DNA from: an uncultured bacterium | GTDB lineage: Bacteria > CAYUVA01 | Direction: 5' to 3' | Assembly (NCBI GenBank): GCA_964448115.1 | Contig: CAYUVA010000035.1 | Span: 1-52,063 of the forward strand | DNA length: 52,063 bases | Shown here: one piece after another, positions 14,183-41,626 of the stretch | Layout of the letters: the number at the start of each line of letters is the position of its first letter | Numbering within the stretch: the stretch's first letter is position 1 | The notes under the pieces: generated by a model | What the model was told of the DNA's origin: nothing | Databases searched by the model: none | Seen by the model: only the letters and a program-made list of their open reading frames with translations | Program-made: the position numbers and the translations under genes

Positions 14183-16966
14183 TTAGTCTAGGCATTGGAG
14201 GTACGGCGCAAGCAGGCTCTGCAAGCCTAGCTCGTTGGTAGCCTTGAACTCGAAGAGGTACCGTTTGGCTTCAATACCTGCGCCGACCGGGATATCGACC
14301 AGCCCAAATACGCCCTCGTATTCTGGGATCGCTGGCAGGTAGGCGCCGGTCCCTATCCCTGTGTAGTAGATCTCCACGCTGGTAACCTGCGCCGGGTTGG
14401 GATCATCGGTGAGCACGTACACGGCGAGCAGCCCTCCATCAGCTTCGGTTATGCTAGTGTACATGTAACCGCATGCGAGTATCATCGGTCTCAAGCCAGC
14501 GGTTGCGGTTGGAGTCGCAGTGGCAGTGGAGCTAGGCGTAATGGTAGCAATAATCGTAGGGGTAAAGGTCGCCGTGTAGGTATTTGTGGGCATGGCTGTA
14601 GGCGTACCTGTCGGGGTAGGGGAGGAGGGTATTGTCGGAGTCGAGGTATCGGTTGCGGTCCAAGTTGGTGTCGGCGTCATTGTCGTAGTCGGCGTTGCAG
14701 TGGAGGTGTTGCTCGGCGTGTAGGTCGGCGCGCCGGAAGGCGTAGCGGTCGGCGTTGCAGTAATAAGATAAAGCTCAATCAGCTCCATCCGACCCTCATC
14801 GAGCGTATCATCCCCGAAGCCGACCTCACGCTGAATCATGCGCGCGAACCACTTGGCATCTGGCGCATAATAATAGTGCAGTGTCGTGTTCCCGTCGCGC
14901 GCATCCTCGAAGATATAATGGCTCTCGAAGCCATTGACCTCGGTTCGGTAAAGGCAGGCGATGTTTAGATCAAGCTCGAACTCGCTGTCAAAGGTTTCAT
15001 AGCCGATCATAAACTGGATGTTCATATCGCCGTAGGTATGCACCGTGCTATGATCCCTCCATCTATCACCGACTCTCAAAGTAAAATTGTAGTCCCTGAT
15101 CGGCGGCTGATAGTCCTCGTACTCGTTGAAGTAGATATATCCGACCTCTCCCCAGCCAGCTCCCATGTCAATCTCAAGGATGCCGTACATATTGCGGCTG
15201 CGATGCACGGTCGATAGTTGATCCGTGGTCAATAGCCAACTGCCCCGGTAGTCGCCGTCCCTGACCCGAAGATCCACTGCGAGCTTGTCGATATCAAAAT
15301 CTATGTAAGTTCTTCCCAACAGGTCAAAGGTCCCGTTGATCTGAAGGTCATATACATCTACATCGGGCACATTCTCAGCAATGGGAAGAGGATGGCTGCC
15401 AAGGTTGTAATAGGTGGCTGTGGTCTGTATATCGAAGAAGCCGTCCTCGCCGATGGTAGGACCGGTTATGTAAAGGCTCTCATCGAATACCCACCAGTCG
15501 CCCTGGAACCATATCGGCGCATCGACGCCAGGCACTGTGGGAAGCGGAGTAGCGGTCGGCGTTGAGGTCGGCATCATGGTAAAGGTGCTTGTCGGCGTGG
15601 AACTTGGGGTCGGTGAAGGCGTAGCGCTCGGAAGGGATGTGTAAGTGGCGCTCGGTGTGGCTGTCGGCTGCTGGGTCGGGGTATTTGTGCTGGTTGCCGT
15701 TGGTGAGGCTGTTGGCGTGTTGGTTGGCGTTGATGTTGGGATTAATGTATCTGTGCTTGTTGGCGAGGCTGTGGGCATCGATGTGTAGGTATTGGTCGGG
15801 GATGAAGTGCTTGTGGCTGTTGGAAGCAATGTCTCGGTCGGTGTCATGGTCGGCGTGCTGGAGGGGGTGAAGGTATTTTCTCCGGTTGGCGTTGCGGTAG
15901 GAGTGTCGGTAATTGTCGGCGTTGTGGTTGGCGTTGAGGTTGGAATGGCTGTATTTGTGATGGTCGGCGTCAATGTGGCTGTGGATGTTACTGTTGCTGT
16001 CGGTGTTAGACTCGGCGTCATCGATGGCGTGTTTGTGGGAGTCATGGTTGGTACCATGGTCTCGGTTGGCGTGGCAGTGGGGGTTGAGGTTGGGACTGAG
16101 GTAGGGGTGCTTGTCGAGGTCATTGTTGGTGTAGCTGTTGGTGGATCCGGCTCCAGGTGATAACCGGTCAAATCAGCTCCCCCGCTTTCGATGATTGTCC
16201 CGCTTCCTAGACTGTAGTTATCATAGGAGATCTTTGCATTATAACGCACAGTTGGCGCATACCAAAAGGTCATGCTTCCATCAGCGCCACGATCCTGGAT
16301 GACCTTGTAGGAGAAATAGCCATTAGCGCTCTCTGTTGTGGGACATGTGTAGTTGAAGGTCGCCGTCTCGTTATCATCATAGTACTCGGTGCCCTGGGTG
16401 GGGATAGTCGAATACCCGTAATAATAATAGGTGAAGGAGTGATTCCACGCATCACCTGCATCCAACGGGAAGTCATATTCGTCCAGCGGGGGATCGAACT
16501 CTTCGCTCATCGAGATGGTCATGGTGCCTGCTGGCCACCAGAAGAACCCAGTCCAGATCTCCAGGGTTCCGCTGTAGTAACGATAGCGATAGACCATGTC
16601 CAGGTAGTCCTCTGTGTACCAGATGGTCCAACTGGCAGTGCCGTTATCGATCTTGATATCGGTCAGGCTGCCTTCAAACAAAGCAGCGCCTAGCATGTTA
16701 AATACGCCATCTGTTTCTTTAAGCTCATAGACGCTATATTCATAGCCGGTCTTGCTTTGAGTCTTGTAGCCTATATAGGTGCAATCGAGGGTATATGTGC
16801 CTGTCAAATCCATGTAGCCACCCTCGCCGAGGTCCTCACCGACTATATGCAGCGACTCGTTGTAACTCCAGTAGTTATCCACCAGCCACAGGGGCTTTTG
16901 AGCCTCAGCGTGAACCTGCGAGGCAATTATTGTTACAAGAAAAACTATTACTAGCTTCAACTTCAT
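14183..16966 (-). CDS. Secreted protein: two copies of an aromatic-rich ~250-aa domain, long Pro/Thr linkers and the shared C-terminal domain
   Basis: Signal peptide [20 protein letters not shown] from ATG 16966 (the track's TTG 17002 coincides with a -35 box); PT linkers of ~200 and ~90 aa; ends [11 protein letters not shown]. Confidence 0.88.
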
Positions 16967-16973
16967 ATTCGAG

Positions 16974-17002
16974 ATAATACTATAATCTATAAAAGAGGTC
17001 AA
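16974..17002 (-). promoter_or_regulatory. sigma70-type promoter, probably giving a leaderless transcript
   Basis: TTGACC-17 nt-TATTAT-7 nt-ATG with no SD sequence. Confidence 0.6.
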
Positions 17003-17029
17003 GTAGAAGCATCTATCCCTTATTAGGGT

Positions 17030-17043
17030 TTAAATCGATTTAA
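17030..17043. promoter_or_regulatory. Perfect 14-bp palindrome, candidate operator in the divergent intergenic region
   Basis: TTAAATCGATTTAA. Confidence 0.4.
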
Positions 17044-17197
17044 CTATTATTATGAATGACATCTTCAGGCAACGCCGCTACCAACCTCCAGCCATAATAT
17101 CGTTTCTTAAGATCATGTTGTAACTGCTTGAGATTTTAGATATCATTCTATGATACCAGTAGGTAATGAGCACTTTATACCAATAAGGAGGCTGTAT

Positions 17198-18649
17198 ATG
17201 ATCGGGATCGTCTCTTACGGGGGCTATATTCCAAGGCTGCGCTTGAACCGACAGGACGCGTTCAATGCCATGGGATGGTTCGCCCCGGCTATCATCATGG
17301 TGGCGCAAGGAGAGAGATCGGTCTGCAACTGGGATGAAGATAGCCTGTCCATGGCAGTTGAGGCTTCTATGGATTGCCTCAAGGGAATGGACAAGGCGAA
17401 GATCGATGCCTGTTTCCTGGCTTCGGTAACCCTTCCTTATGCGGATCGACAGAATTCGGGCATCCTTGCCACCGCATTGAATTTAGGCAGCGAGATCGGC
17501 ACATCCGACTTCACCTCAAGCGTGAAATCAGGCACTTCGGCGCTTATAGCCGGGCTGGATGCGGTTCGAAGCGGAAGCAGAAAACAGGTGCTGGTAACCG
17601 CCAGCGACAAGAGAGAGACAAAGGCAGCATACTTCTACGAGCTGTGGTTCGGCGATGGAGCAGGCTCACTACTTCTGGGAAAGGAGAATGTAATCGCAGA
17701 GTTTCTGGGAGCACACTCGGTCTCTTACGACTTCGTGGATCACTACCGCGGCTCGCTCAAGAAGTACGACTATATGTGGGAGGAGCGCTGGACACGAGAT
17801 GAAGGCTACTCCAAGATTATTCCAGAGGCGGTCGGTGGCTTGCTATCCAAGACCGGCATGAAGATCGGGGATTTCGCACAGATCATCTATCCCTGCTTCT
17901 TCTCTGCTGAACACAAGAAGATCGCCAAAAAGATCGGAGCTGACAAGGACCAGGTACACGGCAACATGCACGAGGTCTGCGGCGAGACCGGCTGTGCACA
18001 TCCGTTTGTGATGCTAATCGATGCCTTGCAGGATGCGAGACCTGGAGACAAGATACTCCTTTGCGGGTTCGGACAGGGCTGCGATGCCTTAGCATTCCAG
18101 GTTACGGATGCGATAAAAGACCTGCCACCTCGAATGGGGGTCAAGGGATGCCTAGAGCGGAGAAAGCAGCTCGACAACTACCAGAAGTACCTCAAGTTCA
18201 ACGACCTGGTCCAGGTGGAGATGGGCATTCGCGGCGAGGCTGGCGGTCAGACCGCGATGACAACACTATGGCGTAAGCGCAAGATGATCCTCGGACTGGT
18301 AGGGAACCGCTGCAAGGTGTGCGGCACGCCGCAATTTCCACCAGCACAGATCTGCATCAATCCCCAGTGTGGTGCGGTTGACCAGCACGAGGACTACGAG
18401 TTTGCCTATCGTACCGCCAGGATTGTCATGTACACCGGCGATATGCTCGCTGTCTCCCAGGAGCCACCCGCCATTTATGGCTTGATCCAGTTCGAGGGCG
18501 GCGGGAGGATGCTCGCTGACTTCACCGATTGTACGCTCGACGAGGTCAAGGTGGGTGGCAAGGTGCGCATGTCATTCAGAAAGCGCTGGTATGACAAGGA
18601 TCGAGGATATACCGGTTACTTCTGGAAAGCAGTTCCAAAGGTCAACTAA
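17198..18649 (+). CDS. HMG-CoA synthase-like domain fused to a DUF35 Zn-ribbon/OB-fold domain
   Basis: AAGGAGG RBS; MIGIVSYGGYIP, DEDSLSMAVEA, GDGAGS, GETG; C-terminal CKVCGTPQFPP..ICINPQC and YFWKAVP. Confidence 0.88.
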   Translation: MIGIVSYGGYIPRLRLNRQDAFNAMGWFAPAIIMVAQGERSVCNWDEDSLSMAVEASMDCLKGMDKAKIDACFLASVTLPYADRQNSGILATALNLGSEIGTSDFTSSVKSGTSALIAGLDAVRSGSRKQVLVTASDKRETKAAYFYELWFGDGAGSLLLGKENVIAEFLGAHSVSYDFVDHYRGSLKKYDYMWEERWTRDEGYSKIIPEAVGGLLSKTGMKIGDFAQIIYPCFFSAEHKKIAKKIGADKDQVHGNMHEVCGETGCAHPFVMLIDALQDARPGDKILLCGFGQGCDALAFQVTDAIKDLPPRMGVKGCLERRKQLDNYQKYLKFNDLVQVEMGIRGEAGGQTAMTTLWRKRKMILGLVGNRCKVCGTPQFPPAQICINPQCGAVDQHEDYEFAYRTARIVMYTGDMLAVSQEPPAIYGLIQFEGGGRMLADFTDCTLDEVKVGGKVRMSFRKRWYDKDRGYTGYFWKAVPKVN

Positions 18650-18668
18650 TAGACGAGGAGGCGATATT

Positions 18669-19880
18669 ATGTCCACGGGAATTAAAGATAGAGTCGCTAT
18701 CATCGGAATGGGGTGCACCAAGTTCGGCGAACGCTGGGATGTCGGCTCCGAGGAGCTTATTGTCGAAGCCTTCCTGGAGTGCATTGCCGACGCCGGGATC
18801 GAGAAGCGAGACATAGATGCTGCCTGGTTTTCAACCTGTCTTGAGGAGATAAATGTCGGTAAAAGCGCCCTGCCTCTGTCAGCCACACTTCGATTACCCA
18901 ACATTCCAGTAACCCGCACTGAGAACTTCTGCGCCAGCGGCACCGAGGCATTCAGGGGCGCATGCTATGCGGTCGCTTCGGGAGCCTCGAAGATTGCGCT
19001 GGCGCTCGGCGTGGAGAAGCTCAAGGATACCGGCTATGGCGGTCTGCCCAACCAAGGCTCCGGGGTCGGTTCGCTGAATTGGCTCTGGATGCCGAATATG
19101 ACTGCGCCGGGGACTTTCGCCATGCTGGCGAGCAGTTACGCTGCCAAGTATGGAATAAAGGATGATGAGCTAAAGAAAGCAATGGCGCATGTCTCGGCAA
19201 AGAGCCACTATAACGGCTCTCTCAATCCAAAGGCTCATCTTCAGAAGGCGATTTCGGTTGATGCAGTACTAAGCGCGCCGATAATAGCGCATCCGCTGGG
19301 ACTTTTTGACTGTTGCGGTGTCTCAGACGGGGCTGCTGCTGCCATCGTTACTACTCCCCAGATAGCAAAGGAGCTAGGCAAGAAGGAGCTGGTCTCGGTC
19401 AAGGCGCTGCAACTGGCGCTCTCCAATGGCTTGGAGGCACAATATCACACCTGGGAGGGGGATCACTTCATCACCACCAGCAAGGCTGCGGCAGCAGCAT
19501 ACAAGGAAGCCGGCATCGAGGATCCTCGCAAGGAGATCAGCATGATGGAGCTGCATGACTGCTTCTCTATCACCGAGTTGGTTACCTACGAGGATGTCTT
19601 CATCTCCGAGCGGGGACGGGCGGTCAAGGATATCATGGACGGCTTCTATAACCTCGATGGCAAGATCCCTTGCCAGCCGGATGGTGGCTTGAAGTGTTTC
19701 GGACACCCGATAGGCGCCAGCGGACTGCGCATGTTGTACGAGATGTACCTCCAACTGCAAGGCAGGGCGGGGAAGAGGCAGATCAAAGATCCGGTCTATG
19801 GTATGACCCATAACCTGGGTGGTATGCCCTTTATGAACATCAGCAGCATCGCTATTATCGGGCGCTACGATGCTCACTAG
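18669..19880 (+). CDS. Thiolase (acetyl-CoA C-acyltransferase), SCP-x/archaeal type
   Basis: GAGGAGG RBS; VAIIGMGCTKFGE, ENFCASG, DCCGVSDGAAA, ELHDCF, GGLKCFGHPIGASG, HNLGG. Confidence 0.92.
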   Translation: MSTGIKDRVAIIGMGCTKFGERWDVGSEELIVEAFLECIADAGIEKRDIDAAWFSTCLEEINVGKSALPLSATLRLPNIPVTRTENFCASGTEAFRGACYAVASGASKIALALGVEKLKDTGYGGLPNQGSGVGSLNWLWMPNMTAPGTFAMLASSYAAKYGIKDDELKKAMAHVSAKSHYNGSLNPKAHLQKAISVDAVLSAPIIAHPLGLFDCCGVSDGAAAAIVTTPQIAKELGKKELVSVKALQLALSNGLEAQYHTWEGDHFITTSKAAAAAYKEAGIEDPRKEISMMELHDCFSITELVTYEDVFISERGRAVKDIMDGFYNLDGKIPCQPDGGLKCFGHPIGASGLRMLYEMYLQLQGRAGKRQIKDPVYGMTHNLGGMPFMNISSIAIIGRYDAH

Positions 19881-19950
19881 GTAGGCTACGAGGAAAGTGA
19901 TGAAGTGGTAGAGTGATAATGTGATAATGATAATATCAAGGAGATAAAAA

Positions 19951-22464: not shown

Positions 22465-22550
22465 GGCTTGAGGATTATTTAATCCCACCAGAGTCGGAAC
22501 AAAAAGCTTGTCCCCGCAAAGACAGGGGGCACGAAGAGGAGAAAGAGAAG

Positions 22551-22640
22551 CACGCAAAGACGCAAAGAACGCACGGGAGAGGGGACAAGAGAAGGGGATT
22601 CTTAAAGCCCCTATCCCACACCCTTGCTCCCTCTCCTAGC
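22551..22640. repeat. Second copy of the composite intergenic repeat seen at 5773-5880
   Basis: Identical 19-mer cacgcaaagacgcaaagaa, then ggacaaga and aaggggattcttaaagcccctatccc (compare aaggggagtcttgaatcccctatccc). Confidence 0.75.
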
Positions 22641-22641
22641 A

Positions 22642-22795: not shown

Positions 22796-22881
22796 CTTTG
22801 GTAGAAGGCATTTCATTGCCCAAATGAATGGTATTAGTCATTTAAATTAGATATAGGGAGAGAAAGCCTTGGCTAACCGAT

Positions 22882-26714: not shown

Positions 26715-28574
26715 CTATTCTCCTACATTCAGGTAGGGCCATAGATCGCTAGGTTGTTCATCTTTCTTTGCCATGTATTGGATAAGGGTGCTGCCTGGCG
26801 CGATGCCCGGCTCCACAGGTACCTGGTACATTCCGAAAATGCCCATTGCCGGGTCGAGCACTGGAACCATTTCGCCGGTCGGGTTACCATCAAGATAGAA
26901 CTCGACGCTGTCTGCTGCTACTAATTCCTCGGTGGCGGCATAGACCAACAGGCTCATATTTCCGCCCGCCTCTGCCGTAATGAAAGTTTCCATGTACCCA
27001 GCCAAGTAAATAATAACCTTCGGTGGCTTTGCTATCGGTGTGAATTCCAGCTGAGGCGTCGGGGTATTTGTGGGCGTTGCAGTTATGGTCGGTGTTGCAG
27101 TTGGTGTTGGAGTAGGCGCTGCCAATGTATGCGCTATGACATCGACCGATGGATTGCTCAGCGAACCTTTATTATCCCGTGCAGCAACCGCGATGAAATA
27201 CAAGGTATCTGATGCTAATCCACTCAACTCCGCGCTTGTCTGTGTAACATCGACATACTCTCGCTGATCGATCTGTGGCTGGTCGCCATAGTAAACCCGA
27301 TAGCCGACCAGGTGGCTCTCCGAGTTGGGCGACCAGTGCACCGAGACGATCTCTGTGCCTATCTCATCGATGGTCAAGCCCTCTGGATTGGAGAGATTGA
27401 GGTTCATATCCTTCAGGAACCAGACCCTGTTTGCGAACCTAAAGTAGGGATCGCTCTCGCCGACATCGCTTCTTATGCGCACGGCAGGACCGATGCCGGG
27501 AACGATCCACTGGTACTCCATGTTGGGAAGCATTGTATAAAGGTCGGTGCGGAACTGATAAAGGAGGCACGGATAATCGACTAAGCCCTTGGATTCGAGG
27601 TTAAGGCGAATCTTACCCTCGGAGAGTATCTTCTTATAGGTATTTGCCACGAAGTCGGCGCTATACTCGCCGGCAGGCTGCTGGATCTCACCGACCACGA
27701 AGTTACTCCAGCTCATGTTGTAGTCGGTTGGAAACAATAGACTCTGTTCATAACTCTCTTCATAAAGGGTAATCAGCTTCTGCGAGGGGAGATTCTCCCC
27801 AAGGATATATCCGTAAAGCGCCTGCTGTTGGGAATCATTGCCGTGAAACGAGTAGTCCCGGTCATCGTTGTCCGGGATATCGATCTTTAGGATATAGTCT
27901 GGATCATTAAATAAATATGGCAGGTAGTCTGCCTGTGGGGATTGGTCTAAGGCTACCACGGAGGTGATCTCCTCCTTGTAAAGGTAGCTTGCAGGTATGT
28001 TGCTGAAGTCCCAGAAGGTAACCTGCGAGGAGAGATTCTGTGGATTTATATAGGCGGAGACATTGATATCGGCTGCCTTTTTATCCGAGCCTTCCTGCCC
28101 ATAGACCCAGTAGAACTCGATCGTATCCCCGACCTTAGGGGTGCTGGCGTCTGCTTCGAGCAGAACCGACCTCTGGTACGGATCCGGATCGTCCATAGAG
28201 ACGATCACAGGAGGGCTGAATTCCTCGGCATCATCGAACACAACGCCGACCTTGTATTGATAAGCCTCCCCGCAGACGATATCCCTATCGATATAGCGGT
28301 AGCTGGTTATCGCCTCGGCATTGATCTTTACGAAATCCCCAATTCCGTCATCGTAGCGATAGACATTGTAATAAGACGCATCTTCAACCAGCTCCCATCT
28401 TAGGTCGATGACACACTGGAGATTCCAGGTTGTGTAGATACCGTTAAGCTCGGTTGATTGCTTAATGGAAGCGGTCGCATTTCCGAGCATAAGCGGCGCT
28501 AAGATAAGACATGCCATCAAAGCGATAATAGCTTGGTCGCGTTTTTTCTTCATTGTCTCTCCCCTTGTGATCAT
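26715..28574 (-). CDS. Secreted FN3-domain protein with Pro/Thr linker and the shared C-terminal domain
   Basis: Signal peptide (MKKKRDQAIIAL...ATA; start possibly 28553); FN3 motifs LRW..YNVYR..YQYKV and VHW..GYRVYYG..LSGL..YFIAVAA; ends SDLWPYLNVGE. Confidence 0.88.
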   Translation of the reverse strand: MITRGETMKKKRDQAIIALMACLILAPLMLGNATASIKQSTELNGIYTTWNLQCVIDLRWELVEDASYYNVYRYDDGIGDFVKINAEAITSYRYIDRDIVCGEAYQYKVGVVFDDAEEFSPPVIVSMDDPDPYQRSVLLEADASTPKVGDTIEFYWVYGQEGSDKKAADINVSAYINPQNLSSQVTFWDFSNIPASYLYKEEITSVVALDQSPQADYLPYLFNDPDYILKIDIPDNDDRDYSFHGNDSQQQALYGYILGENLPSQKLITLYEESYEQSLLFPTDYNMSWSNFVVGEIQQPAGEYSADFVANTYKKILSEGKIRLNLESKGLVDYPCLLYQFRTDLYTMLPNMEYQWIVPGIGPAVRIRSDVGESDPYFRFANRVWFLKDMNLNLSNPEGLTIDEIGTEIVSVHWSPNSESHLVGYRVYYGDQPQIDQREYVDVTQTSAELSGLASDTLYFIAVAARDNKGSLSNPSVDVIAHTLAAPTPTPTATPTITATPTNTPTPQLEFTPIAKPPKVIIYLAGYMETFITAEAGGNMSLLVYAATEELVAADSVEFYLDGNPTGEMVPVLDPAMGIFGMYQVPVEPGIAPGSTLIQYMAKKDEQPSDLWPYLNVGE

Positions 28575-30465: not shown

Positions 30466-30525
30466 CTAATAATTAAATCCCTAACAAGATCGGGACATGC
30501 AATAGTAAGAATATAGAGGGCATCG

Positions 30526-32607: not shown

Positions 32608-33384
32608 ATGATATACTGCCTTATACCTGTATATAACGAGGAGCTTGGCATCGGGTGCCTGCTCGATGACCTTTATGGGTACCTGCAAGCCCTGGTGGAT
32701 GACTTCAAGATGGTGGTGGTCAATGATGGCAGCAAAGACCGCTCTTTTGAGATCATCGAGGCATTCCCCCATAAAGAGCATCTTGTTTACCTTGAGCATA
32801 AGACGAACCTGGGGGTGGATAGCGCCTTCAAGACCGGGTTCGACTATATCCTATCCAGGGCAAAACCGGATGATATCTGCATCACTTTGGAGGGCGATGG
32901 AACCAGCGATATTAGGCTTATATATCCGATGATAGAAAAACTGAGAGGCTCTGGAACCGATGTATGCCTGGCTTCCTGTTATGCCAAGAAGGGAGCTGTG
33001 GTTGGCGACCCTCCATCTCGATATATCTTCAGCGTTGGCGCTAATATTCTCTTGAAACTGCTGTTTGATATCAAAGGAGTGCACACCTACACATCGTTTT
33101 ATCGCGCCTTTTATGTGAGGGTCATCCATCAACTGATCGACCATTATGGCAACAGGTTCATGGATACCCCTGGATTCACTTGCATGGCTGATATGCTGAT
33201 CAAGATGCGACATCTACCGATAACTGTAGTCGAGATCCCGCTGATACTGAAGACGACCAGGGAGACCTCGCAAAGCAAACTGAAGGTCGGAAAGACCATA
33301 GTCGGCTACTTTGTACTTTTCTATAGGAACCTGCTGCATAGGTTTTACTATGGCAAGAAGCTCAAAAAGCAGAAGAAAGGCTAG
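32608..33384 (+). CDS. GT2 glycosyltransferase, DPM1/polyprenol-phosphate sugar synthase-like
   Basis: IPVYNEE, VVNDGSKD, NLGVDSAFKTG, TLEGDG, YTSFYRAF. Confidence 0.88.
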   Translation: MIYCLIPVYNEELGIGCLLDDLYGYLQALVDDFKMVVVNDGSKDRSFEIIEAFPHKEHLVYLEHKTNLGVDSAFKTGFDYILSRAKPDDICITLEGDGTSDIRLIYPMIEKLRGSGTDVCLASCYAKKGAVVGDPPSRYIFSVGANILLKLLFDIKGVHTYTSFYRAFYVRVIHQLIDHYGNRFMDTPGFTCMADMLIKMRHLPITVVEIPLILKTTRETSQSKLKVGKTIVGYFVLFYRNLLHRFYYGKKLKKQKKG

Positions 33385-35365
33385 GCGACTCGAACAACAG
33401 GCTCCCAAGGTTACCTACCCCAAGTATATTCTAGGCTTGGTCATCTTCATTATCCTTCTGCAAAGCTATTTATTCATAGCCGCTCCCTTTGTCTATTGGG
33501 GCGATGATGGCGAGTTTCTCTTTGCAGCTCATTATCTGGATCTCTCTCATCCACCTGGGCATCCGCTTTATCTTCTCATCCTAAAGGGTGCTTTATACCT
33601 GCCCTTTGGAAGCATGGCGCTGCGAGGCAATTACCTGTCTGGGGTCTTGTGTGCGGCTGCCTGTCTGGTGCTATACTTTGCTTTATTCTCATTCTTTCAA
33701 AAGCATTTCAGGGGTTACGAGGCGTATATATGGTCGCCCTTAGGCGCCATTCTCTATGGTATGACCCTGTTTATCCTGCCCCAGACATATCGCAGCGAGA
33801 CTTATGCGCTGAGCTACCTCATGATAACCGTGCTTTTGTGCTTGATACTATGCTTAGCAAAGGAAAATGCCACCAGGAGCCTTTGCCTCATCGGTCTAGT
33901 CTTTGGATTGGGATTCGGCAATCATACGCTATCCATGGCAGTTTTCATGCCTGGATTGTTATTTATGATCATATATTCGATTTTCAAGTATAATCTGGGC
34001 ACAAGGCGGGTTTTTGTGGCTTTATTCATGGTGATCTTGGGAGCATCGGTTTATCTGTATCTGCCGATAAGAGGCTCGAAGCCGGTGTTCTTAAACTGGG
34101 GTGAGCCTACCAATCCGCGCAACCTGGTCGAGACGATCAGTGCTTCATATTACATGAATCAGGTCTTTGAGCAAAACTCAAAGGGTAGTATCTACGCCAA
34201 CCTGAAACGCCTAGTTCATCCATTGACCTACTTCTCGTTGTTTCTCGCCTTATGCTCGGTGGTTTACCTGGGAAAGGATCACTGGCAAAAGCTTGTGGTG
34301 TTTGTCTCCGCGGCGCTCATCGACCTGTTGCTCGTGAGCAAGACTGCCATATTCGATATGTCTAACCCAGACATTCTCGGTTATCTTCTACCCTTTGGCG
34401 CCGTATTCGGTATGTCTGCTGCCATCGGCGGCGGGTATTTCATGTACTACTTGACCAAGGAGGTCGGCGAGGCTCTGGGCATTATTACATTTATTTTCTT
34501 CATTGGCTTTTCGCCGTACTCGATAATTGCCGATGGTCTGGGGAATATCAAAAGTGCCAACCACCGCAAGGATGCATCGGCGTTTTATTTCGCTGATATA
34601 ATTCTTGAAAACCTGGCACCATCGCCGTTGGTGCTTACCCAGAGCGATATCTACTACACCCTGTTATATAGAGCCTTTGTCGAAAAGGCTAGAGATGATG
34701 CGATCCTAGTATCTCGCAATGGATTAAAGCGACATGGCTATCTCAAGAACCTGGTAGCGCGAGATCCTGAAATGAAGCCGATATTTGCCGCCCCTGACCT
34801 AAAGGCAGTGGTTAGAAACCTTGAGAAGCTATACAATAAGCCCTGGTACTGGGAGATCGGAGAGGACAGCTTCCTCATCGAGTTAGATGACTTCATACCG
34901 GGCAGCTTCCTGCTTCGATATATTAGTCATCCCCCAAAGCCGTTATACGATCAGGCACTGGCTGAATATGTGGATCTGAGCAGGTACTACGATGAGCTGA
35001 TGCGAGATACCGAGGCTTACGATGATTTTCACTATCGGGAGCTATATGGCATGACCAGGTATAATTTGGGCACCTATTTCTACAAAGTCCAGGATTACAA
35101 TGCAGCGGTCAGGGAGTTCTCCAATGCAGAGGATATTAACCCCGATAATCCTAGCGTATATGTGAATCTAGGCGCTGCCTATGCTGCGCTCGATCAATGC
35201 CCCAAGGTGGTGGTGTTATTGGAGCAGGGACACAGAAGGCATCCGCGCAATGAAAAGATAATCCTCAATTTAATCGCATGTTACGAAAGAATGGGGCAGG
35301 AATACCTGGTGCAGAAGTGGAGCAAGACCCTAGCGGAAGTTCAAAGTGGGAATGTTGTTAAGTGA
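33350..35365 (+). CDS. DUF2723/TMEM260-like GT-C membrane glycosyltransferase with C-terminal TPRs
   Basis: YWGDDGEF...HPPGHPLY, ETYAL, GLGFGNH, YLYLPIRG...NWGEP; TPR YNLGTYFY...VYVNLGAAY. ATG 33350 overlaps the GT2 gene. Confidence 0.85.
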   Translation: MARSSKSRRKARRLEQQAPKVTYPKYILGLVIFIILLQSYLFIAAPFVYWGDDGEFLFAAHYLDLSHPPGHPLYLLILKGALYLPFGSMALRGNYLSGVLCAAACLVLYFALFSFFQKHFRGYEAYIWSPLGAILYGMTLFILPQTYRSETYALSYLMITVLLCLILCLAKENATRSLCLIGLVFGLGFGNHTLSMAVFMPGLLFMIIYSIFKYNLGTRRVFVALFMVILGASVYLYLPIRGSKPVFLNWGEPTNPRNLVETISASYYMNQVFEQNSKGSIYANLKRLVHPLTYFSLFLALCSVVYLGKDHWQKLVVFVSAALIDLLLVSKTAIFDMSNPDILGYLLPFGAVFGMSAAIGGGYFMYYLTKEVGEALGIITFIFFIGFSPYSIIADGLGNIKSANHRKDASAFYFADIILENLAPSPLVLTQSDIYYTLLYRAFVEKARDDAILVSRNGLKRHGYLKNLVARDPEMKPIFAAPDLKAVVRNLEKLYNKPWYWEIGEDSFLIELDDFIPGSFLLRYISHPPKPLYDQALAEYVDLSRYYDELMRDTEAYDDFHYRELYGMTRYNLGTYFYKVQDYNAAVREFSNAEDINPDNPSVYVNLGAAYAALDQCPKVVVLLEQGHRRHPRNEKIILNLIACYERMGQEYLVQKWSKTLAEVQSGNVVK

Positions 35366-35391
35366 TCAGGAACATCGGAATCAGGACAATC

Positions 35392-36642
35392 CTATGCTTT
35401 AGAACCTTCGCGCACGCTGACTATGCTGATAATAATATATAGAGTTACCGAGCCTATGCCATAAGAGGCGACGGTGCCAATGGCTGCGCCAAGAAATCCA
35501 TAACATGGGATCAAAGCCAAGTCGATGGCTATCTTGCTTGCCAGCACTAAAAAGGAACTTATCGGGATCAGGTATTGCTTACCGATGCTGATGAGCGTGG
35601 TCGATATCAAAAAATTCCAGAACAAAAATACTACCGACCAGCAGATGATGCGCAGGGCATCAGCCGCCATGAGATATTGAGCCCCGGAAACCAGCAGGAT
35701 TATCCACTCCGATAGCAGATAAAGTACCACTGCTATGACCAGGCCGGCAAAACTCAATGCCAGGAATACCCGCTTGAAGATGTATCCAAGTCGCCTGGGA
35801 TCAGATAAATGCATCCGCGAGAATACAGGAAATAGCGCGCCAACAAATGCCAATGGCAGTACCTGAAGGTTCATCACCAGTACATGGGGCAGGTTGAACA
35901 GCGCTACCTCGGTCGAATCCTTCAACGCCTTTAGTAAAAAAACATCTGCCTTGAAGGCTGCGTGAGTGAAAAAGGCTGCCAGGGTTAGCGGCGCAGCATC
36001 TTTAAGGATAGCTTTAGCCATGCCAATATTAAAGGACAGATCCGGCTTGCAGAATCTCTTAAGTGTAAAAATTAGTGCCAGCGTTCCCTTAAGTACCGAA
36101 CCGGCTGCTATGGCGATGAACAGGGCGATGAAGCCGGCATCGGTAATAAAAACGATAATAATGGCTGCTATTATGGTTGTTCGTGAGGCTGCGGTTAGCA
36201 ACGTATCGTACTCCATGCGCTGAAAGGCGTTGAATATGCCATTGAAGGTCATGAAGTGGTGCTGGAAAAGCTCGGAGAATACGGCAACGACAACGGCAAT
36301 CATCATGGCGCGATCCAGTGTAAAAAATGGCGCTATTCCAAGCGCAAGCCCTATGAATACAAGCATCAATGCCCACTTGATCCAAAGGACGCTGCCAAGT
36401 ATGCTCGAAGCCTTTTGTGGCTGCTGAGCCACATTGCGGATGATGATCTTATCAGTCTCAAAGTTGACCGCCGGCTGGAAGACCAGGATATAAGCCCATA
36501 TCCAGGCGAAGTCGCCGTAGCGCTCCGGCGCCAGGTACCGGGTAACCAGCGCCACCTGTCCGAAGGAGAAGAGGATGTCTATAACCCGTGCAGCTAGGAT
36601 TACCGCCGAGTTCTTGGCTACGATACGCCTGGTGCTGGACAT
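35392..36642 (-). CDS. Wzx-type polysaccharide/oligosaccharide flippase
   Basis: IVAKNS, VTRYLAPERYG, ADVFLL, ALFPVFSR, LIPCYGFLGAAIGT; many TM helices. Confidence 0.9.
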   Translation of the reverse strand: MSSTRRIVAKNSAVILAARVIDILFSFGQVALVTRYLAPERYGDFAWIWAYILVFQPAVNFETDKIIIRNVAQQPQKASSILGSVLWIKWALMLVFIGLALGIAPFFTLDRAMMIAVVVAVFSELFQHHFMTFNGIFNAFQRMEYDTLLTAASRTTIIAAIIIVFITDAGFIALFIAIAAGSVLKGTLALIFTLKRFCKPDLSFNIGMAKAILKDAAPLTLAAFFTHAAFKADVFLLKALKDSTEVALFNLPHVLVMNLQVLPLAFVGALFPVFSRMHLSDPRRLGYIFKRVFLALSFAGLVIAVVLYLLSEWIILLVSGAQYLMAADALRIICWSVVFLFWNFLISTTLISIGKQYLIPISSFLVLASKIAIDLALIPCYGFLGAAIGTVASYGIGSVTLYIIISIVSVREGSKA

Positions 36643-36715
36643 TAGAGCACTATTGGTTCTTTCCTTAACTTCCTATTATTGCAAGAGTATCTTTGGAATT
36701 CGATATCCCCTTGCA

Positions 36716-39700
36716 TCAGTCTCCAACATTAAGATAGGGGAACAAGGTGCTGCTGTTATCGCGTCTGTCGAATGCCTTTACCTCAAGTAGGATGCTGGTT
36801 TGTGGCAGCCCGGCATCAAGGTTGAGTACATATCCATAAAGCCCGTCCCCGGCTACTCCATCGCCGTTAGCGCCGGTATCGCTTAGCCAAATGCCGGTCG
36901 GTAATCCCTGGTAGCAGAGTTCCACCCGCTGAATGTCGAAGATTCCCTGTGGATCGCTTACATAAGCGAGGATCTGCAAGGTTCCGCCGCTGTCCGAGTG
37001 CAGGCTGGTGGTTGCGTAGCCGCCGAGAAACACCATGGGAGGATCGCCCTGTGGTGGCTGGGTCGGAGTGCTAGTAGGGGTACTGGTGATTGCCGGCGTA
37101 TCGGTTGCTGTAGGTGTGTATGTGATAACAGATGTATCTGTCGGCGTAGGCGTGAATGTTGTGGTTGGCGTCCTTGTCGGCGTGGGTGTCGGTGTGGGAG
37201 GTTCGCCGCCGGCGCCCCCGATCCAACTGAGTATATTCACTGCCACCTTGCGCCGATAATTCTCATCGAGCTTCATGTAGTTTGCGCTGAGGAATGCAAA
37301 GGTTCCACCATTGTACATGTCTCCATCGTTGTCGCTGATGATGAGCGAGTAGTTATCGGCATCGCTCCAGCCGAAGATCCCCTGGGCGATACCTGCTTTT
37401 ATAATGTCATCGGAGTCGGATTGGCTTGAGTAAACCAAGGGAATATAGCTCGGCAATTGATGGGGCACTCGCGCCAGAACATGCGTATTGTCAAAGATGT
37501 GCAGATCACCCTTGGGCGAACCTGTTGAGCTGTCCGTGCGAAGCACTACCTGCGAGAAGAGCTGGTGCTCGGTGTCGTGAGCGCTGGCAACCTCTCCGCC
37601 TTCGATAACCAGTTTGCCGCCGGAGTTGACATAAGCGATGAGTTGCTGGCGATGGGCATCTAGATCGATCGGATTCGAGTTATCGCTGCTCGACCAGATC
37701 ACCAGGTCGTAGGTCTCATCGGTGAGGTTTACGCCATCTTCAGTATTTTGGACCGCGATCTCATAGCGCAGATCCTGTAGCATCTGGTACAGATCATCAA
37801 AAGAGGAGGATCCATCATTGACCAGAAGCACGCTTCCCATATCGCCCACCGTAAGGTATATAGGCTCGATGGTTGCGCTACCCATATCGCTTGTCCAATT
37901 AAGGCTGAACGCACAGATATGACCATCGGGTGTCTGCTCAGAAGCGCTTAGGGAAAAGTGCGGAGCTATGGAATGGCTGTTTTGTCCGTAGTCTGCCGGA
38001 CCGAAGTTCGCTGTATCATCGGTTATAGTAATGAATTGATCGCAGGTCTGAAGCACCCCGCTTATGCCCTGTAGATCGCTGCCTTCATTATGCAGCACTA
38101 TCGACAGGGTCGCCTCCTCCCCAGCCTCCATGATGCCATTGCCATTACCCTGGCTGCTGTCATTCAAGGTAAAGGAAAGTAATTCTAATTGAGGTGAATA
38201 TACTGTGATCTCAAAGTCGAAGAGTCCGCTTTCCTCGCCTGATTGCCAGTTCAGCCTAAAGCTAGCCTGGTGGAGGTTCGGTGTATCGTCTGCGACAGTG
38301 AGTGCGAAGTGGGGAGGCTGTGTGCTGCCTGCCTGACCGCCTGGGATATCACCGAAGTCAGCCTCGCCATTTGTTATTGTGATATATTCGCTCTGCGTGC
38401 TCAAGGTAGCGCTCACTGCTTGGGCATCAGCGCCGGAATTGGACAGGGTAACCGATAGCTCAATCTGCTCTGAGCGATCTGCCTTGCCGTTCTCATTGCC
38501 ACCGCTATCGTTTATCTCGTATCCCTCGAAGTGCAAAAACGGCACATCGCAGGGCGAGGAGTGAAACACCTTCACATCATCTATATTCCAGCCGCAGAAG
38601 GTTAAGCCGCCATCCGAGGTGCCCATGACCCATTGTAAAAAGACGGTTGGTTTATTATCGGCGATGCTTGAAATGTCGAACTCCTGGTAGAGCCACTGCG
38701 AGTCGCTCAGAGTCTCGCTGTTCTCCCAGAGCGTGGTCCAGGCAAAGCCATTGGTCGAGATCTTAAAATAAGCATGGTCATAGATGGACTCCTCGACACC
38801 CAGCCATCTCCAAAAGCCGACCCGCAAGCCTGTCTTGCCGCTGCAATCTATAGCCCGTGTAGTGAGCTTCTCCTGCCCCATGTTGTTGGGATAGTTGCCC
38901 TGAAGGTTGTAGCCATAGACATTGGTTCCGGTATAGCCGTTGTCTGGGTCAGGGTTCTGTCCCGAACCTCTTTGACCAGTCGGATCCCCGTAAGCCCACT
39001 TCATGAATCCACTGCCACCGACCACGGTCCAATCGGGATCGCTATCCATGTTAGCCTGCATTAGTACCGACTGTAGCCAGGTGGTGAAGTTGAAGTGATC
39101 CCCCTGGTTGTCATCTATCGCCTCGTTGCCGGCAAAGTCGGTGGAGCTGACCGAGAAGTAATACTTGGTGCAACCATCTAAATTGGGGATGGTGATACTG
39201 TGATCGGTGGTAAGGAATCCGCTCTGGACGCTATGACCGAGTTGGTGAGTGGTGCCATAGTAAACCTTGGAGTTGCTTGGCTCATCGGTTGTCCAGGTAA
39301 TTGTCGCCTTGTTGTAGCTTACAGCGCTGACATTTACATTGGATATTATTGGCTGCTGGGCATCGAGGTAAGCATAGGCGAACTTGTGGACATTTATTCC
39401 GCCCCTGCCATCATCCTCGTCCAGGTAATCGGCGGTCAGCTTATCGCCATGGGCAGCCTGAAGTATGCCATCCCCTGGCTGCACGCTGGTATCGGCGATC
39501 TGAATATTGCCCACGAGGGTTGCGGTGCCGAAGCCGGTCTCATGACAGGTAACCGTCTCGTTGTCTCCAGCATCGCTAGTTACCGTGATATCGACCGTAT
39601 CTATCTGCCCCGGATACTGGTTCAGGTCGCGGTCGATAACCGTGATAGCCATCGAGCTTCCCGGCGCGTAGATACTTTTGTCCATCGATATGATTCCATC

Positions 39701-41626
39701 CTTGCTCAATCCACCGCCCAGCGCCACGGAGGGATCTCCGAACAGGTTAAGCTGATAATAGCACCACCGATTAGCGCCGTAGTTAAGGAACGGTATGGTA
39801 TCCTCCTTGGAGTCCTGGTTAGCCCATCCAAGTTCAAGAATATCCTCGCCGAAGATGGCATCGAAGAACTGGCGATCGAAGTACTGCGAGGAGCCATTGG
39901 TGCTGCTGTGATTGCCCCATCCATACCTCGAATTTGTAACCGCCGCAAAGGCGCCATTGTCGTTTACGCAGGTGATGTGTTCCGAGGCGCAATCCACATT
40001 CTCGGTGGAGCCGTAGTCATCTCGGTTGTCAAAAGAGCCGCAGTAGCAGCCCTGGCTGTAGAAAAAGAAGTACTTGGTGTTATTCAGGGTATCTATGTCA
40101 GAGTTGTACATCCTTGCCATGTAATCGACATAAGAATGCCCCAGATGGTTGTAAACATGGGTATTGCTTTGATTAATTATGCCTTTAAGGGTCGATGCGC
40201 TCCATTCACCTGGCATATCGCGATCGTAAAGCGTCTGTACATTCCACTCGGCGGGGAAACCGACGGTGGTATATCCGTGATTACTTGAACCGTTCTTCAC
40301 CTCGTCCTTGTAGTCGCCACCGTAAGTGGGGTCATCCCAGAGCAATTCGCCGAGCATATACGCTCTCTTCAGATATGAATCATCTCCAGGAAGCGTCTCG
40401 TACCATATGGTCTTGGCAACGATATTGTGTATCTCTGCGAGGCTATCTGTGCAGAATCGCCCCACTGCCACCTCGGAGTATAGATCGACCTCGCCGCCGC
40501 CGATGCCGTCGTTCGGTTCAGCCCATCGGCTGTCATTATCGTAGTTGAAGCTGCCATCAAGGTTGGCATAGTACATATCGGCTGGAATATTGGAGTCAGA
40601 CTCGCCATAATCGGTCGAGGAATAGAAGCCACGATCCGGCACTATGACATCGCCGCTCTCTCCGCCGACATCGCTATGATCGCTATCTCCTACCAGCAGC
40701 ACGAACTCGGTATCCCAGTTTGTATAAGCATCGATGATGAAGTTACGGATCTTGGCTTGATTGTCTAAGCCTGGATAGTTGGCGTAGATCTCCTCTACTG
40801 TCTTTATGGTGGTGGAGTAGCCGCGTTGGGTCTTGTGTTGGGCAAAGTCCTGGAGAGAGTTCTGGCTTGTATCCGAGGCGAATGACTGGTTGGTTATAAT
40901 CACGAATCGATATGTGTCTTTCGCATCGCATAGGATCCCGCCTTTGGGGGGCTGGGGAACATAAGAGTCAATAAGCTGCGGATTATCGACCATCCTTTGC
41001 ACCCACTGGCGATCCCTTTGGTTGTTTCGGCATATAACGGTCGCTTCATCAGCCTTGCTGCCCTTTTTAAGTTCCAGGATAACCTGGAGATGTTCGTAGT
41101 AGTAAAGCTCGCCTGAATTCGGGACATATAAAGTAGGACTGAGTGTAAAGACCACAATGGAGTATCCACGGCAGTATTGCATGGAGACATCTCCGATAAT
41201 CTGCCTGGGATAAGGGAGATTAGATGTATATATTCGGGGGTTCGGCTCGGTGAATCGCCATTGGTCCGGCTTGCTCAGCGGAACCTGTACCTGGCCAGGA
41301 GCTAGCATGACATGGCGGGCAACGAGCTGCTTCTGCCCCGGCTCGACCCTTATGGCATGTAGATAATATCCCTGGGGTATGAGTACCTTGCCAGCCCTTA
41401 AGGGCATTGTTGGCATGCCTGGCTTACCGAAGATCTCGCAGCCTTCGATGTATGCTACCTGGAACTCAGCAGTCTTGCCATCCTGAAGTGGATAGGTCTT
41501 TGTCTTTATTATAGGATTAGCAAAATCGTACTGCACGACCAGGCTCGTATTATCAGCGATCGCTCCACCGGGGAAAAACAAGCCTACCAGGATGAAAAAA
41601 AGCATAGTGATTCTAATTATCGACAT
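36716..41626 (-). CDS. Secreted gingipain-like C25 cysteine peptidase with propeptide, FN3 and other beta domains, Pro/Thr linker and the shared C-terminal domain
   Basis: Signal peptide; GKPGMPTMP propeptide; IRNFI, VLLVGD, ADMYYANLDG, VAVGRF; catalytic NHLGHS and SQGCY; LNLFGDP; ends STLFPYLNVGD. Confidence 0.92.
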   Translation of the reverse strand: MSIIRITMLFFILVGLFFPGGAIADNTSLVVQYDFANPIIKTKTYPLQDGKTAEFQVAYIEGCEIFGKPGMPTMPLRAGKVLIPQGYYLHAIRVEPGQKQLVARHVMLAPGQVQVPLSKPDQWRFTEPNPRIYTSNLPYPRQIIGDVSMQYCRGYSIVVFTLSPTLYVPNSGELYYYEHLQVILELKKGSKADEATVICRNNQRDRQWVQRMVDNPQLIDSYVPQPPKGGILCDAKDTYRFVIITNQSFASDTSQNSLQDFAQHKTQRGYSTTIKTVEEIYANYPGLDNQAKIRNFIIDAYTNWDTEFVLLVGDSDHSDVGGESGDVIVPDRGFYSSTDYGESDSNIPADMYYANLDGSFNYDNDSRWAEPNDGIGGGEVDLYSEVAVGRFCTDSLAEIHNIVAKTIWYETLPGDDSYLKRAYMLGELLWDDPTYGGDYKDEVKNGSSNHGYTTVGFPAEWNVQTLYDRDMPGEWSASTLKGIINQSNTHVYNHLGHSYVDYMARMYNSDIDTLNNTKYFFFYSQGCYCGSFDNRDDYGSTENVDCASEHITCVNDNGAFAAVTNSRYGWGNHSSTNGSSQYFDRQFFDAIFGEDILELGWANQDSKEDTIPFLNYGANRWCYYQLNLFGDPSVALGGGLSKDGIISMDKSIYAPGSSMAITVIDRDLNQYPGQIDTVDITVTSDAGDNETVTCHETGFGTATLVGNIQIADTSVQPGDGILQAAHGDKLTADYLDEDDGRGGINVHKFAYAYLDAQQPIISNVNVSAVSYNKATITWTTDEPSNSKVYYGTTHQLGHSVQSGFLTTDHSITIPNLDGCTKYYFSVSSTDFAGNEAIDDNQGDHFNFTTWLQSVLMQANMDSDPDWTVVGGSGFMKWAYGDPTGQRGSGQNPDPDNGYTGTNVYGYNLQGNYPNNMGQEKLTTRAIDCSGKTGLRVGFWRWLGVEESIYDHAYFKISTNGFAWTTLWENSETLSDSQWLYQEFDISSIADNKPTVFLQWVMGTSDGGLTFCGWNIDDVKVFHSSPCDVPFLHFEGYEINDSGGNENGKADRSEQIELSVTLSNSGADAQAVSATLSTQSEYITITNGEADFGDIPGGQAGSTQPPHFALTVADDTPNLHQASFRLNWQSGEESGLFDFEITVYSPQLELLSFTLNDSSQGNGNGIMEAGEEATLSIVLHNEGSDLQGISGVLQTCDQFITITDDTANFGPADYGQNSHSIAPHFSLSASEQTPDGHICAFSLNWTSDMGSATIEPIYLTVGDMGSVLLVNDGSSSFDDLYQMLQDLRYEIAVQNTEDGVNLTDETYDLVIWSSSDNSNPIDLDAHRQQLIAYVNSGGKLVIEGGEVASAHDTEHQLFSQVVLRTDSSTGSPKGDLHIFDNTHVLARVPHQLPSYIPLVYSSQSDSDDIIKAGIAQGIFGWSDADNYSLIISDNDGDMYNGGTFAFLSANYMKLDENYRRKVAVNILSWIGGAGGEPPTPTPTPTRTPTTTFTPTPTDTSVITYTPTATDTPAITSTPTSTPTQPPQGDPPMVFLGGYATTSLHSDSGGTLQILAYVSDPQGIFDIQRVELCYQGLPTGIWLSDTGANGDGVAGDGLYGYVLNLDAGLPQTSILLEVKAFDRRDNSSTLFPYLNVGD

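Follow-up and report, generated by a model that had tools for sequence, protein, structure and literature searches.

The stretch of DNA analyzed here, the window, comprises 52,063 nucleotides of contig CAYUVA010000035.1 (assembly GCA_964448115.1) from an uncultured bacterium of the GTDB lineage CAYUVA01, and it encodes three proteins, P0001, P0002 and P0003, that end in copies of one domain of about 105 residues, which we call the tail (Table 1). Shared C-terminal domains, such as the tails of the type IX secretion system (T9SS), dockerins and SLH domains, address or organize bacterial secreted proteins. Here we describe the tail family, its copy number, positions, cargo types, predicted fold and restricted range, and weigh what the tail may do. 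The original prediction, made from the letters of the window alone, was that three signal-peptide proteins with different bodies share an alignable C-terminal domain behind a Pro/Thr linker; the open reading frames, linkers and domains were confirmed, and all of the sequence blocks that it quoted are present. All three carriers have signal-peptide-like N-termini. Their tails align over 114 columns, 21 of them invariant, with copies 2 and 3 being 33 and 32% identical to the first, and in each the stop codon falls two residues past the xPYLxx strand. The bodies of the three carriers are mutually unrelated. That of P0001 contains two copies of one domain (27% identity over 243 residues, E = 7e-21), and neither Pfam nor NCBIfam yields a match to the protein at E ≤ 0.1; P0002 contains an fn3 domain (Pfam, E = 3.2e-10), and P0003 is a C25 peptidase (Pfam, Peptidase_C25 at E = 2.2e-58 and the C25 propeptide at 4.1e-09).

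Census and cargo of the tail family

The window belongs to a 3.98-Mb assembly of 86 contigs that is 94% complete (G000 in what follows). The likeness of the three window tails exceeds chance by a wide margin: a profile built from them matched at least 150 places in this assembly, with further copies at E-values down to 7.6e-30. When the profile was iterated to convergence over every stop-to-stop frame of 60 codons or more, the census came to 200 tail copies; 126 frames hold one, 35 hold two and one holds four, 162 in all, so that the expectation of many more copies genome-wide was amply borne out. Counted against our own crude non-overlapping set of 2928 genes, 161 (5.5%) bear a tail. The consensus reads.P.IllAGYmDT.l.s..GG.L.llAyv.Dp...di..VEiYY.G.PTGi.L.DdG..gD..agDGiYg....i.pG.ppg.yLLEl.A.D..Gn.S..WPYL.V, and its best-conserved positions are G8 (0.99), P101 (0.98), L103 (0.89), Y9 (0.88) and G20 (0.88). 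Not every copy has the acidic loop DDGxxGDxxAGDG: the motif is present in 89 of 200 copies, and one loop column is filled in 118 of 199 aligned copies. For 88 of 198 copies, Pro, Thr and Ser together make up at least half of the preceding 40 residues, whereas their background share is 16%.

The tail is found mostly, though not always, at the extreme C-terminus. Between the last copy and the stop codon lie at most 5 residues in 139 of the 162 frames and at most 10 in 143; in the other 19 the distance exceeds 20 residues. Of the 143 C-terminal cases, 128 have just 1–3 residues after the WPYLxV strand. By position, 112 copies are single and C-terminal, 9 are single and internal, and 5 are single and placed directly after the signal peptide; among tandem copies, 38 are upstream, 31 are last and C-terminal, and 5 are last and internal. 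Thirty-six proteins carry two to four copies, and in 14 the last copy is internal. The five N-terminal cases run from signal peptide through tail domain and Pro/Thr linker to the body, which in one is a GH31 enzyme and in another of the FGE-sulfatase type. The spacers between tandem copies measure 23–75 residues in 36 of 38 cases and hold a near-invariant Trp within a short predicted helix. Of the 52 non-terminal copies counted without the tandem copies that are last and internal, 46 retain a strand of the form [WFY]P.[LIFV]: 34 of the 38 that lie upstream in a tandem, all 9 that are single and internal, and 3 of the 5 that are N-terminal. The WPYL strand is therefore a structural element of the domain and requires no free C-terminus.

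A membrane-anchored signal of the LPXTG or PEP-CTERM type was rejected, because the proteins end 1–3 residues past the last β-strand and a hydrophobic C-terminal helix beyond the tails, its absence having been noted at the outset, occurs in just 1 of 162 carriers. That protein, the sole carrier with a membrane-anchor-like C-terminus, has tandem tails and, behind them, an extension of 73 residues that includes a hydrophobic helix and is basic at its end (...AISLLFVSIFSATCYLFYLLYRDRQLQDR). As a separate observation, five carriers continue beyond the tail into a low-complexity stretch of 46–147 residues that ends at the stop in P-x-x-NP-x-P-x-x-GA-x-x-V-x-PN(P)(D). The motif was found nowhere else among the G000 frames, and none of the five frames runs on past the stop; it may represent a further short C-terminal tag, or else what is left of a lost domain.

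Cargo was surveyed with Pfam in 51 of the 162 carriers, located in 20 regions picked for the most carriers per region. A family was assigned at E ≤ 1e-5 in 34 of the 51, and the best stretch never lay on the tail. Peptidases were represented by C25 (three), S8 (two), M14, C14 and S15/PepX (one each), and other enzymes by metallophosphoesterases (three), one endonuclease/exonuclease/phosphatase, GH31 and heparinase II/III; BNR repeats, right-handed β-helices (six), PQQ-type propellers (three) and FG-GAP repeats (three) were also present, as were FGE-sulfatase, AhpC/TSA, prenyltransferase-type toroid, F5/8 type C and PKD domains, among others. This is the cargo expected of an extracellular degradative and adhesive protein set.

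The carriers also look exported. By a crude signal-peptide rule of our own (a positive n-region, a 9-residue hydrophobic core and a small-x-small site), 131 of the 152 carriers not cut by a contig end have a signal-peptide-like start, compared with 609 of the 2086 other genes that encode 200 residues or more, and several of the 21 missed have visibly hydrophobic N-termini; a looser rule was uninformative (148 of 162 carriers versus 830 of 1716). The anticipated co-occurrence of a C-terminal position with a signal peptide thus extends from the window to the genome. Another carrier lies within 5 kb for 60 of the 162. The organism is a diderm with lipopolysaccharide, having four Omp85-family genes, LpxC and six secretin genes. 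Its bias toward the C-terminus, the linkers ahead of it, the range of its cargo and its many copies lead us to regard the tail as a common tag of the secretome, one that marks out the whole extracellular enzyme set of the genome in one step.

Family searches, predicted fold and distribution

A Pfam search of the tail domain at E ≤ 10 returned nothing but A2M_BRD, on one copy with E = 0.13; fn3 and the other named Ig-like Pfam families did not match it, and the precomputed Pfam lists of tail relatives place families on the bodies only. The sole NCBIfam match of the window tails is NF041940 ("choice-of-anchor X"), a 37-position model that fits the optional acidic loop DTGANGDGVAGDGLYG of copy 3 below its cut-off (20.1 and 21.2 bits versus 25); copies 1 and 2 give no match to it at E ≤ 10. 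In G000 the model matches 74 places at E ≤ 0.01, of which 50 were flagged as exceeding the 25-bit cut-off, 5 of these only together with neighbors in the same frame. The match usually spans 18–25 of the 37 model positions, a loop of about 20 residues or roughly a fifth of the 105-residue tail. For comparison we used 40 plus 14 genomes out of 199,900 species genomes, and NF041940 occurs in 12 of the 40, with 1–6 matches each. The loop of the tail, L-x-DDG-xx-GD-xx-AGDG-x-Y, does fit this model of an uncharacterized family, but the model is far wider in range than the tail family and, whereas the name "choice-of-anchor" implies, as we take it, alternative anchors downstream of the domain, nothing follows the loop-bearing tail here. 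NF041940 describes a widespread loop motif, not the tail domain. No characterized family covers the tail, as had been claimed, and among the listed papers on CSSED10-310 and "choice-of-anchor" proteins none describes it in its title or abstract opening. With many further copies and a mostly C-terminal position on proteins with signal-peptide-like starts, none of the outcomes named beforehand as contrary to the proposal (full coverage by a characterized family, mostly internal or cytoplasmic occurrence, no further copies) was found.

All structural statements that follow are predictions. AlphaFold2, given an alignment of 41 paralogous copies, folded the tail into a seven-strand, Ig-like β-sandwich with a mean predicted local distance difference test score (pLDDT) of 92.4 and a predicted template modeling score (pTM) of 0.83. 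The structural check that had been proposed thus gave a confident Ig-like sandwich, and a Foldseek search of the PDB found nothing at E ≤ 0.001, the best match (6.0e-3) being the C-terminal domain of a sulfite dehydrogenase. VIA-align against 48,161 chains gave no Z of 8 or more, values under 8 being the stated background level for a common fold; the best matches were xanthanase (6fhn_A, Z 7.7, root mean square deviation 3.0, 93 residues aligned) and the FN3 domain of ChiA1 (1k85, Z 7.6), with the Fn3-like modules of CbhA (3pdd and 3pe9) at Z 7.1 and 6.7 and 25–27% identity. The nearest ESM Atlas clusters (score 0.94) consist of unnamed hypothetical proteins, and a common Pfam family was present in 0 of 30. 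The predicted structural likeness is limited to the common Ig/FN3 fold and points to no specific relative.

The window genome is the single member of its phylum among the 199,900 species genomes. The 40 compared genomes share only domain-level kinship with it, and the tail was found in one of them alone (G022, 20 matches). Within the phylum of G022, hereafter the sister phylum, 11 of 14 species genomes hold 4–48 matches each at E ≤ 1e-8, and G051, G052 and G053 hold none at that threshold. Among 1.84 billion public protein cluster representatives, 820 matched at E ≤ 0.001, 487 at 1e-10 and 142 at 1e-30; their source labels include "hypothetical protein", "lamin tail domain-containing protein" and one that starts "candidate division CSSED1", candidate division CSSED10-310 being listed as a phylum in the NCBI taxonomy. 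The tail is C-terminal in 110 of 140 relatives outside G000 that hold a full-length copy, a set in which 131 have two copies since ranking by summed scores favors these. As far as sampled, the family is rare and confined to two deep lineages, in agreement with the lineage restriction originally suspected, and a profile of the tail would improve the annotation of both phyla, where carriers are now "hypothetical" or named by their body domain. In two giant metagenomic proteins only the central part of the tail profile was matched, 35 times in P0004 (7609 residues; profile positions 21–71) and 25 times in P0065 (5880 residues; positions 17–51), and a related repeat unit thus occurs in very large repetitive proteins elsewhere.

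One member of the family is little more than a tail. This tail-only protein of about 160–220 residues (open frames of 171–264 codons) is present in G000 and in all 11 carrier genomes of the sister phylum, and consists of a signal peptide, about 60–90 residues with a conserved S-W-x-x-L helix, and the tail. It is the top profile match in 10 of the 11 carrier genomes and comes second in G041, behind the tail in a frame of 1165 residues. The G000 version is 34.5% identical over 194 residues, the N-terminal part included. In the sister phylum the gene adjoins khpA and other housekeeping genes in 7–8 of 11 loci, with fabF-like, selA, mfd and ppiC-type genes among its other neighbors; nearby are also genes for a cytosolic-looking protein of 449 residues and a multi-pass membrane protein of 582 residues, both without a Pfam match. 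None of this synteny is present at the G000 locus, and we therefore read it as housekeeping synteny. The conservation of the tail-only protein suggests, as far as sequence can tell, a core role in tail function.

Pairing module, sorting signal or ancillary domain

Two chains of tail copy 3, modeled with the 41-row alignment, were predicted to form a homodimer with a score of 0.75 (runs 0.75, 0.76 and 0.52), compared with 0.00 for the best of three controls. In the calibration of the method, whose counts apply here only roughly since the alignment was our own, 20 of 30 proteins solved as pairs of one chain and 1 of 23 solved as single chains reached the mark. The runs agreed in at least 96% of contacts, with a partner pLDDT of at least 79. 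The predicted interface is two-fold symmetric (contacts 10-10, 9-9 and 105-105), comprises residues 6, 8–15, 17–20, 22, 25, 28, 30, 32, 82–89 and 102–111, and is formed by the AGY-x-DT, LLE and WPYLxV strands. The prediction supports tail-tail binding without demonstrating it. A tandem pair modeled as one chain with an 11-row alignment reached a pLDDT of 80.9 and a pTM of 0.78, the 37-residue spacer staying under a pLDDT of 50. Since this pTM is higher than would be expected of two independent beads, the two copies would pack together, and tandem copies probably hold a fixed mutual orientation.

We tentatively favor the view, to which we give a probability of roughly 0.42, that the tail is an Ig-like module for self- or cross-pairing that organizes or retains exported proteins, and is not purely an export signal. 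Some 160 Sec-exported proteins of unrelated function bear the module, mostly at their extreme C-terminus and mostly behind a Pro/Thr-rich stalk, and its edge strands, the N-terminal P-I-x-x-AGY-x-DT and the C-terminal WPYLxV, would pair with those of a second copy. Proteins with a single copy would pair with themselves or with one another, and those with a tandem pair would satisfy the interface inside one chain. Exported hydrolases and binding proteins might in this way be kept together on the cell surface or within an extracellular matrix, a role nearer to that of a dockerin or a surface-anchor module than to that of a translocation signal. We prefer an association module to a translocation signal because copies occur N-terminally, internally and in tandem, because the WPYL strand is structural, and because pairing is predicted. 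Self-association of the tail is predicted, and surface retention or assembly by it is inferred. The original proposal of a secretion or surface-attachment tag accordingly stands as regards a lineage-specific module of the secretome; a specific C-terminal sorting signal sits poorly with the N-terminal, internal and tandem copies, a binding or assembly module fits better than an export signal, and surface attachment may still apply.

The type I dockerin, which is borne by a large share of an organism's secreted cellulosomal enzymes and serves assembly, not export, is an analogy in function alone. Like it, the tail is small, probably binds Ca2+, follows a Pro/Thr linker and is mostly C-terminal, with some copies placed elsewhere. 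The analogy ends there: a dockerin is a helical, EF-hand-like duplication that binds a separate cohesin on a scaffoldin, whereas the tail is predicted to be a β-sandwich, has no match to the Pfam dockerin family, and has another tail copy as its predicted partner.

Several observations weigh against a pairing module. The dimer is a prediction, and because solved Ig-like dimers are common, its passing the mark may reflect likeness to these. Interface columns are only slightly better conserved than the others (1.65 versus 1.30 bits, Mann-Whitney p = 0.067), and 9 of the 20 best-conserved columns fall within an interface that takes up 34 of 105 columns, so that the argument from conservation is weak. 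Upstream and downstream tandem copies could not be separated into subtypes (42 of 70 correct in cross-validation) and hence give no evidence for complementary partner types. The 88% C-terminal bias and the 1–3 trailing residues form the pattern of a terminal signal, which a mere pairing module does not need. No scaffold, receptor or anchor protein was found, though scaffoldins were not searched for systematically. A bolder version, in which the tail belongs to an undescribed, T9SS-independent surface-display system of two rare phyla, in which edge-strand pairing joins about 5% of the proteome together or delivers it to an outer-membrane receptor, and the tail-only protein serves as primer, cap or adaptor, is in our view unlikely.

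That the tail is instead a C-terminal secretion or sorting signal for an outer-membrane pathway, an analogue of the T9SS C-terminal domain (CTD) that is recognized by a translocon or shuttle, perhaps cleaved, and leaves its cargo attached to the surface, is the strongest competing account, although we consider it doubtful. The tail shares several traits with the type A CTD (TIGR04183, Por_Secre_tail, PF18962). Both are small seven-strand Ig-like sandwiches at the extreme C-terminus, both follow a flexible linker on Sec-exported hydrolases and adhesins that are unrelated to one another and number from dozens to hundreds in a diderm host, and the tail ends 143 of 162 proteins, mostly 1–3 residues after the last strand. 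About 160 large proteins with typical exported cargo need a way out of a diderm cell with lipopolysaccharide. The tail nevertheless has about 105 residues compared with the 72 positions of the model and also occurs N-terminally, internally and in tandem, its last copy lying away from the extreme C-terminus in 19 proteins and non-terminal copies keeping the last strand; to our knowledge, such placements are not known for T9SS tails.

A divergent T9SS tail was ruled out on three grounds. TIGR04183 had no match in G000, where 7 candidates were scored, and none in G022, whereas 16 of the 40 other genomes matched it, six of these between 62 and 107 times. SprA (TIGR04189) was not found in G000 (94% complete), G022 or G041, and was found in all three genomes rich in T9SS tails that served as controls (G004, G016 and G028); PorV, PorU and GldKLMN were not searched as families. 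Finally, hhalign of 41 tails against 20 T9SS CTDs from the comparison genomes gave a probability of 1.0%, which, together with the WPYL strand of the non-terminal copies, also speaks against the idea that the terminal PYLxV strand acts as a T9SS-like end signal. The tail is not a T9SS cargo tag, yet it fills the same architectural niche in lineages without T9SS tails and SprA, and this pattern would fit a functional replacement. Nor does pairing decide the matter. The published work on RgpB of Porphyromonas gingivalis (PMC4804311) describes a T9SS CTD that is a seven-strand Ig-like sandwich and dimerizes by swapping of its C-terminal strand about a two-fold axis, a geometry similar to that predicted for the tail; the swapped region is the export signal, and the authors proposed that the dimer reflects recognition by the secretion machinery. 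The predicted tail dimer alone is therefore no argument against a signal. Besides the placements and the lack of profile similarity, it also tells against a sorting signal that no candidate machinery emerged: the FadL-like and GT-C leads described below are weak, and C25 peptidases and GT-C enzymes track the tail imperfectly. Whichever of the two accounts applies, about 5.5% of the genes are spent on one unnamed tail in a lineage lacking T9SS tails and SprA, which points to an unrecognized mode of holding exoenzymes or an unrecognized export route.

It is likewise improbable that the tail is just another ancillary module of the Ig/FN3 type, whether spacer, stabilizer or Ca2+-dependent binder of polymers or envelope glycans, that has spread by domain shuffling and plays no part in sorting or mutual pairing. 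The FN3-like and Ig-like modules of glycoside hydrolases (1k85, 3pdd/3pe9 and 6fhn) are its best fold matches, at Z 6.7–7.7 over 78–93 residues, a mixture of N-terminal, internal and C-terminal placement is typical of binding modules, and the acidic loop in 89 of 200 copies is suggestive of Ca2+ binding. Those Z-scores are at the background of a common fold, however, Foldseek having found nothing at its threshold, and the hydrolase modules show no sequence-family match to the tail and seemingly lack its N- and C-terminal motifs. That peptidases, phosphatases, nucleases, peroxiredoxin-like proteins and propellers carry the domain alike, as does the conserved tail-only protein of about 200 residues with little besides its tail, speaks against a module directed at a substrate, and 88% terminal placement in 5.5% of genes is unusual for a spacer.

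Eukaryotic TMEM260 and TMTC enzymes O-mannosylate Ig-like domains, and G000 is extraordinarily rich in membrane glycosyltransferases of the GT-C class, with 90 PMT_2 and 18 TMEM260-like matches in 103 genes, about 3.5% of the total. Such an enzyme is the immediate neighbor (within one gene) of 17 of 161 carriers compared with 10.2 expected (p = 0.024), an association lost within two and three genes (p = 0.098 and 0.25), and a TMEM260-like gene lies two genes away from the C25 gene of the window. Even so, and despite highly conserved Thr and Ser positions in the tail, it is very improbable that the tail would be, by analogy with these systems, chiefly a glycosylation acceptor, given that the adjacency is short-ranged, that GT-C counts do not track the tail (G052 has 38 matches and no tail) and that the Pro/Thr linkers, as the obvious candidate targets of GT-C enzymes, are more plausible acceptor sites. 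The N-x-S ahead of WPYL was also considered as a glycosylation sequon and set aside, as it lacks the acidic residue at position -2 of the PglB sequon; D-x-x-G-N-x-S is a common hairpin in bacterial Ig-like domains.

Candidate machinery and neighboring genes

Families enriched within two genes of carriers were sought by an all-against-all comparison with the tails masked, followed by a permutation test of 17 families. Single-linkage clustering of the bodies chained 77 carriers into one cluster of 110 members and was not used as a measure of relatedness. A four-member PMT_2-like GT-C family (p = 0.004) and ten FadL/OMPP1/TodX barrels (p = 0.014) were enriched before correction, and neither enrichment survives correction for the 17 tests. 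All ten barrels exceed the Pfam cut-off and score 25–61 bits with the PorV/PorQ model, whose cut-off is 90; five of these outer-membrane proteins are encoded within two genes of a tail-bearing gene.

Across the 14 sister-phylum genomes, PMT_2 matches number 19–71 in carriers and 11, 38 and 8 in the non-carriers G051, G052 and G053; C25 peptidases number 8–26 in carriers and 1, 15 and 2 in the same three genomes; and FadL-like barrels number 1–5 per genome, with 4, 2 and 5 in the non-carriers. None of the three cleanly splits carriers from non-carriers. The co-distributed translocon or processing enzyme whose existence had been anticipated did not come to light, as neither the neighborhood test nor the phyletic test (four families, 14 genomes) yielded a candidate translocon, receptor or processing enzyme. 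In the window itself the three carriers are surrounded by fatty-acid, nucleotide-signaling, radical-SAM and polysaccharide genes, with no hint of export or processing machinery in that neighborhood.

Table 1. Coordinates of the window features and of related features elsewhere in G000 (window positions unless a contig handle, C, is given)
Feature	Position	Strand	Description
P0001 (gene 1)	14183..17002	-	939 codons if read from TTG, but translation likely begins with the Met at 16966; signal peptide, two aromatic-rich domains of ~250 residues with a Pro/Thr-rich region of ~230 residues between them, Pro/Thr linker, tail
P0001 body	14603-16900	-	two unnamed Tyr/Trp-rich domains of ~250 residues; Pro/Thr/Ser-rich spacer of ~230 residues
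Linker ahead of copy 1	14501..14779	-	Pro/Thr/Ser-rich
Tail copy 1	14186..14500	-	105 residues; stop at 14183-14185; without the DDGxxGD loop; E = 1.8e-48 (three-sequence profile)
P0002 (gene 2)	26715..28574	-	619 residues; signal peptide, unnamed body, fn3 (residues 395-476), Pro/Thr linker, tail
Linker ahead of copy 2	27033..27128	-	Pro/Thr
Tail copy 2	26718..27032	-	105 residues, ending ...DLWPYLNVGE; E = 4.9e-47 (three-sequence profile)
P0003 (gene 3)	36716..41626	-	1636 residues; signal peptide, C25 propeptide (49-188), Peptidase_C25 (241-635), then fn3-like and other unnamed regions, Pro/Thr linker, tail
Linker ahead of copy 3	37052..37210	-	Pro/Thr
Tail copy 3	36719..37051	-	111 residues, ending ...TLFPYLNVGD; used for fold and dimer predictions
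GT-C gene	33311-35365	+	TMEM260-like
GT-C gene	50005-51618	+	
GT-C gene	43271-44764	+	weak match
Radical SAM genes	6717-8075; 10612-11724; 41871-43274	-; -; +	two B12-binding and one SPASM
Carrier with membrane-anchor-like end	C1:100797-103248	-	strand-relative frame
Carrier with P-x-x-NP-type end	C53:14180-17882	+	strand-relative frame
Carrier with P-x-x-NP-type end	C29:17490-19602	-	strand-relative frame
Carrier with P-x-x-NP-type end	C25:34137-37005	+	strand-relative frame
Carrier with P-x-x-NP-type end	C16:63839-66224	+	strand-relative frame
Carrier with P-x-x-NP-type end	C1:76592-78362	+	strand-relative frame
Tail-only protein	C4:99820-100407	+	G000 record L046:31-615; relatives P0162-P0169 and L052-L062
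FadL-like barrels (first five)	C2:151798-153132, C5:111540-112778, C6:95482-96927, C10:44961-46241, C22:40230-41576		
FadL-like barrels (other five)	C27:2437-3750, C36:23670-24872, C37:11132-12370, C39:31063-32367, C60:7249-8481		

The radical SAM genes of the window adjoin spermine-synthase-like and glycosyltransferase genes.

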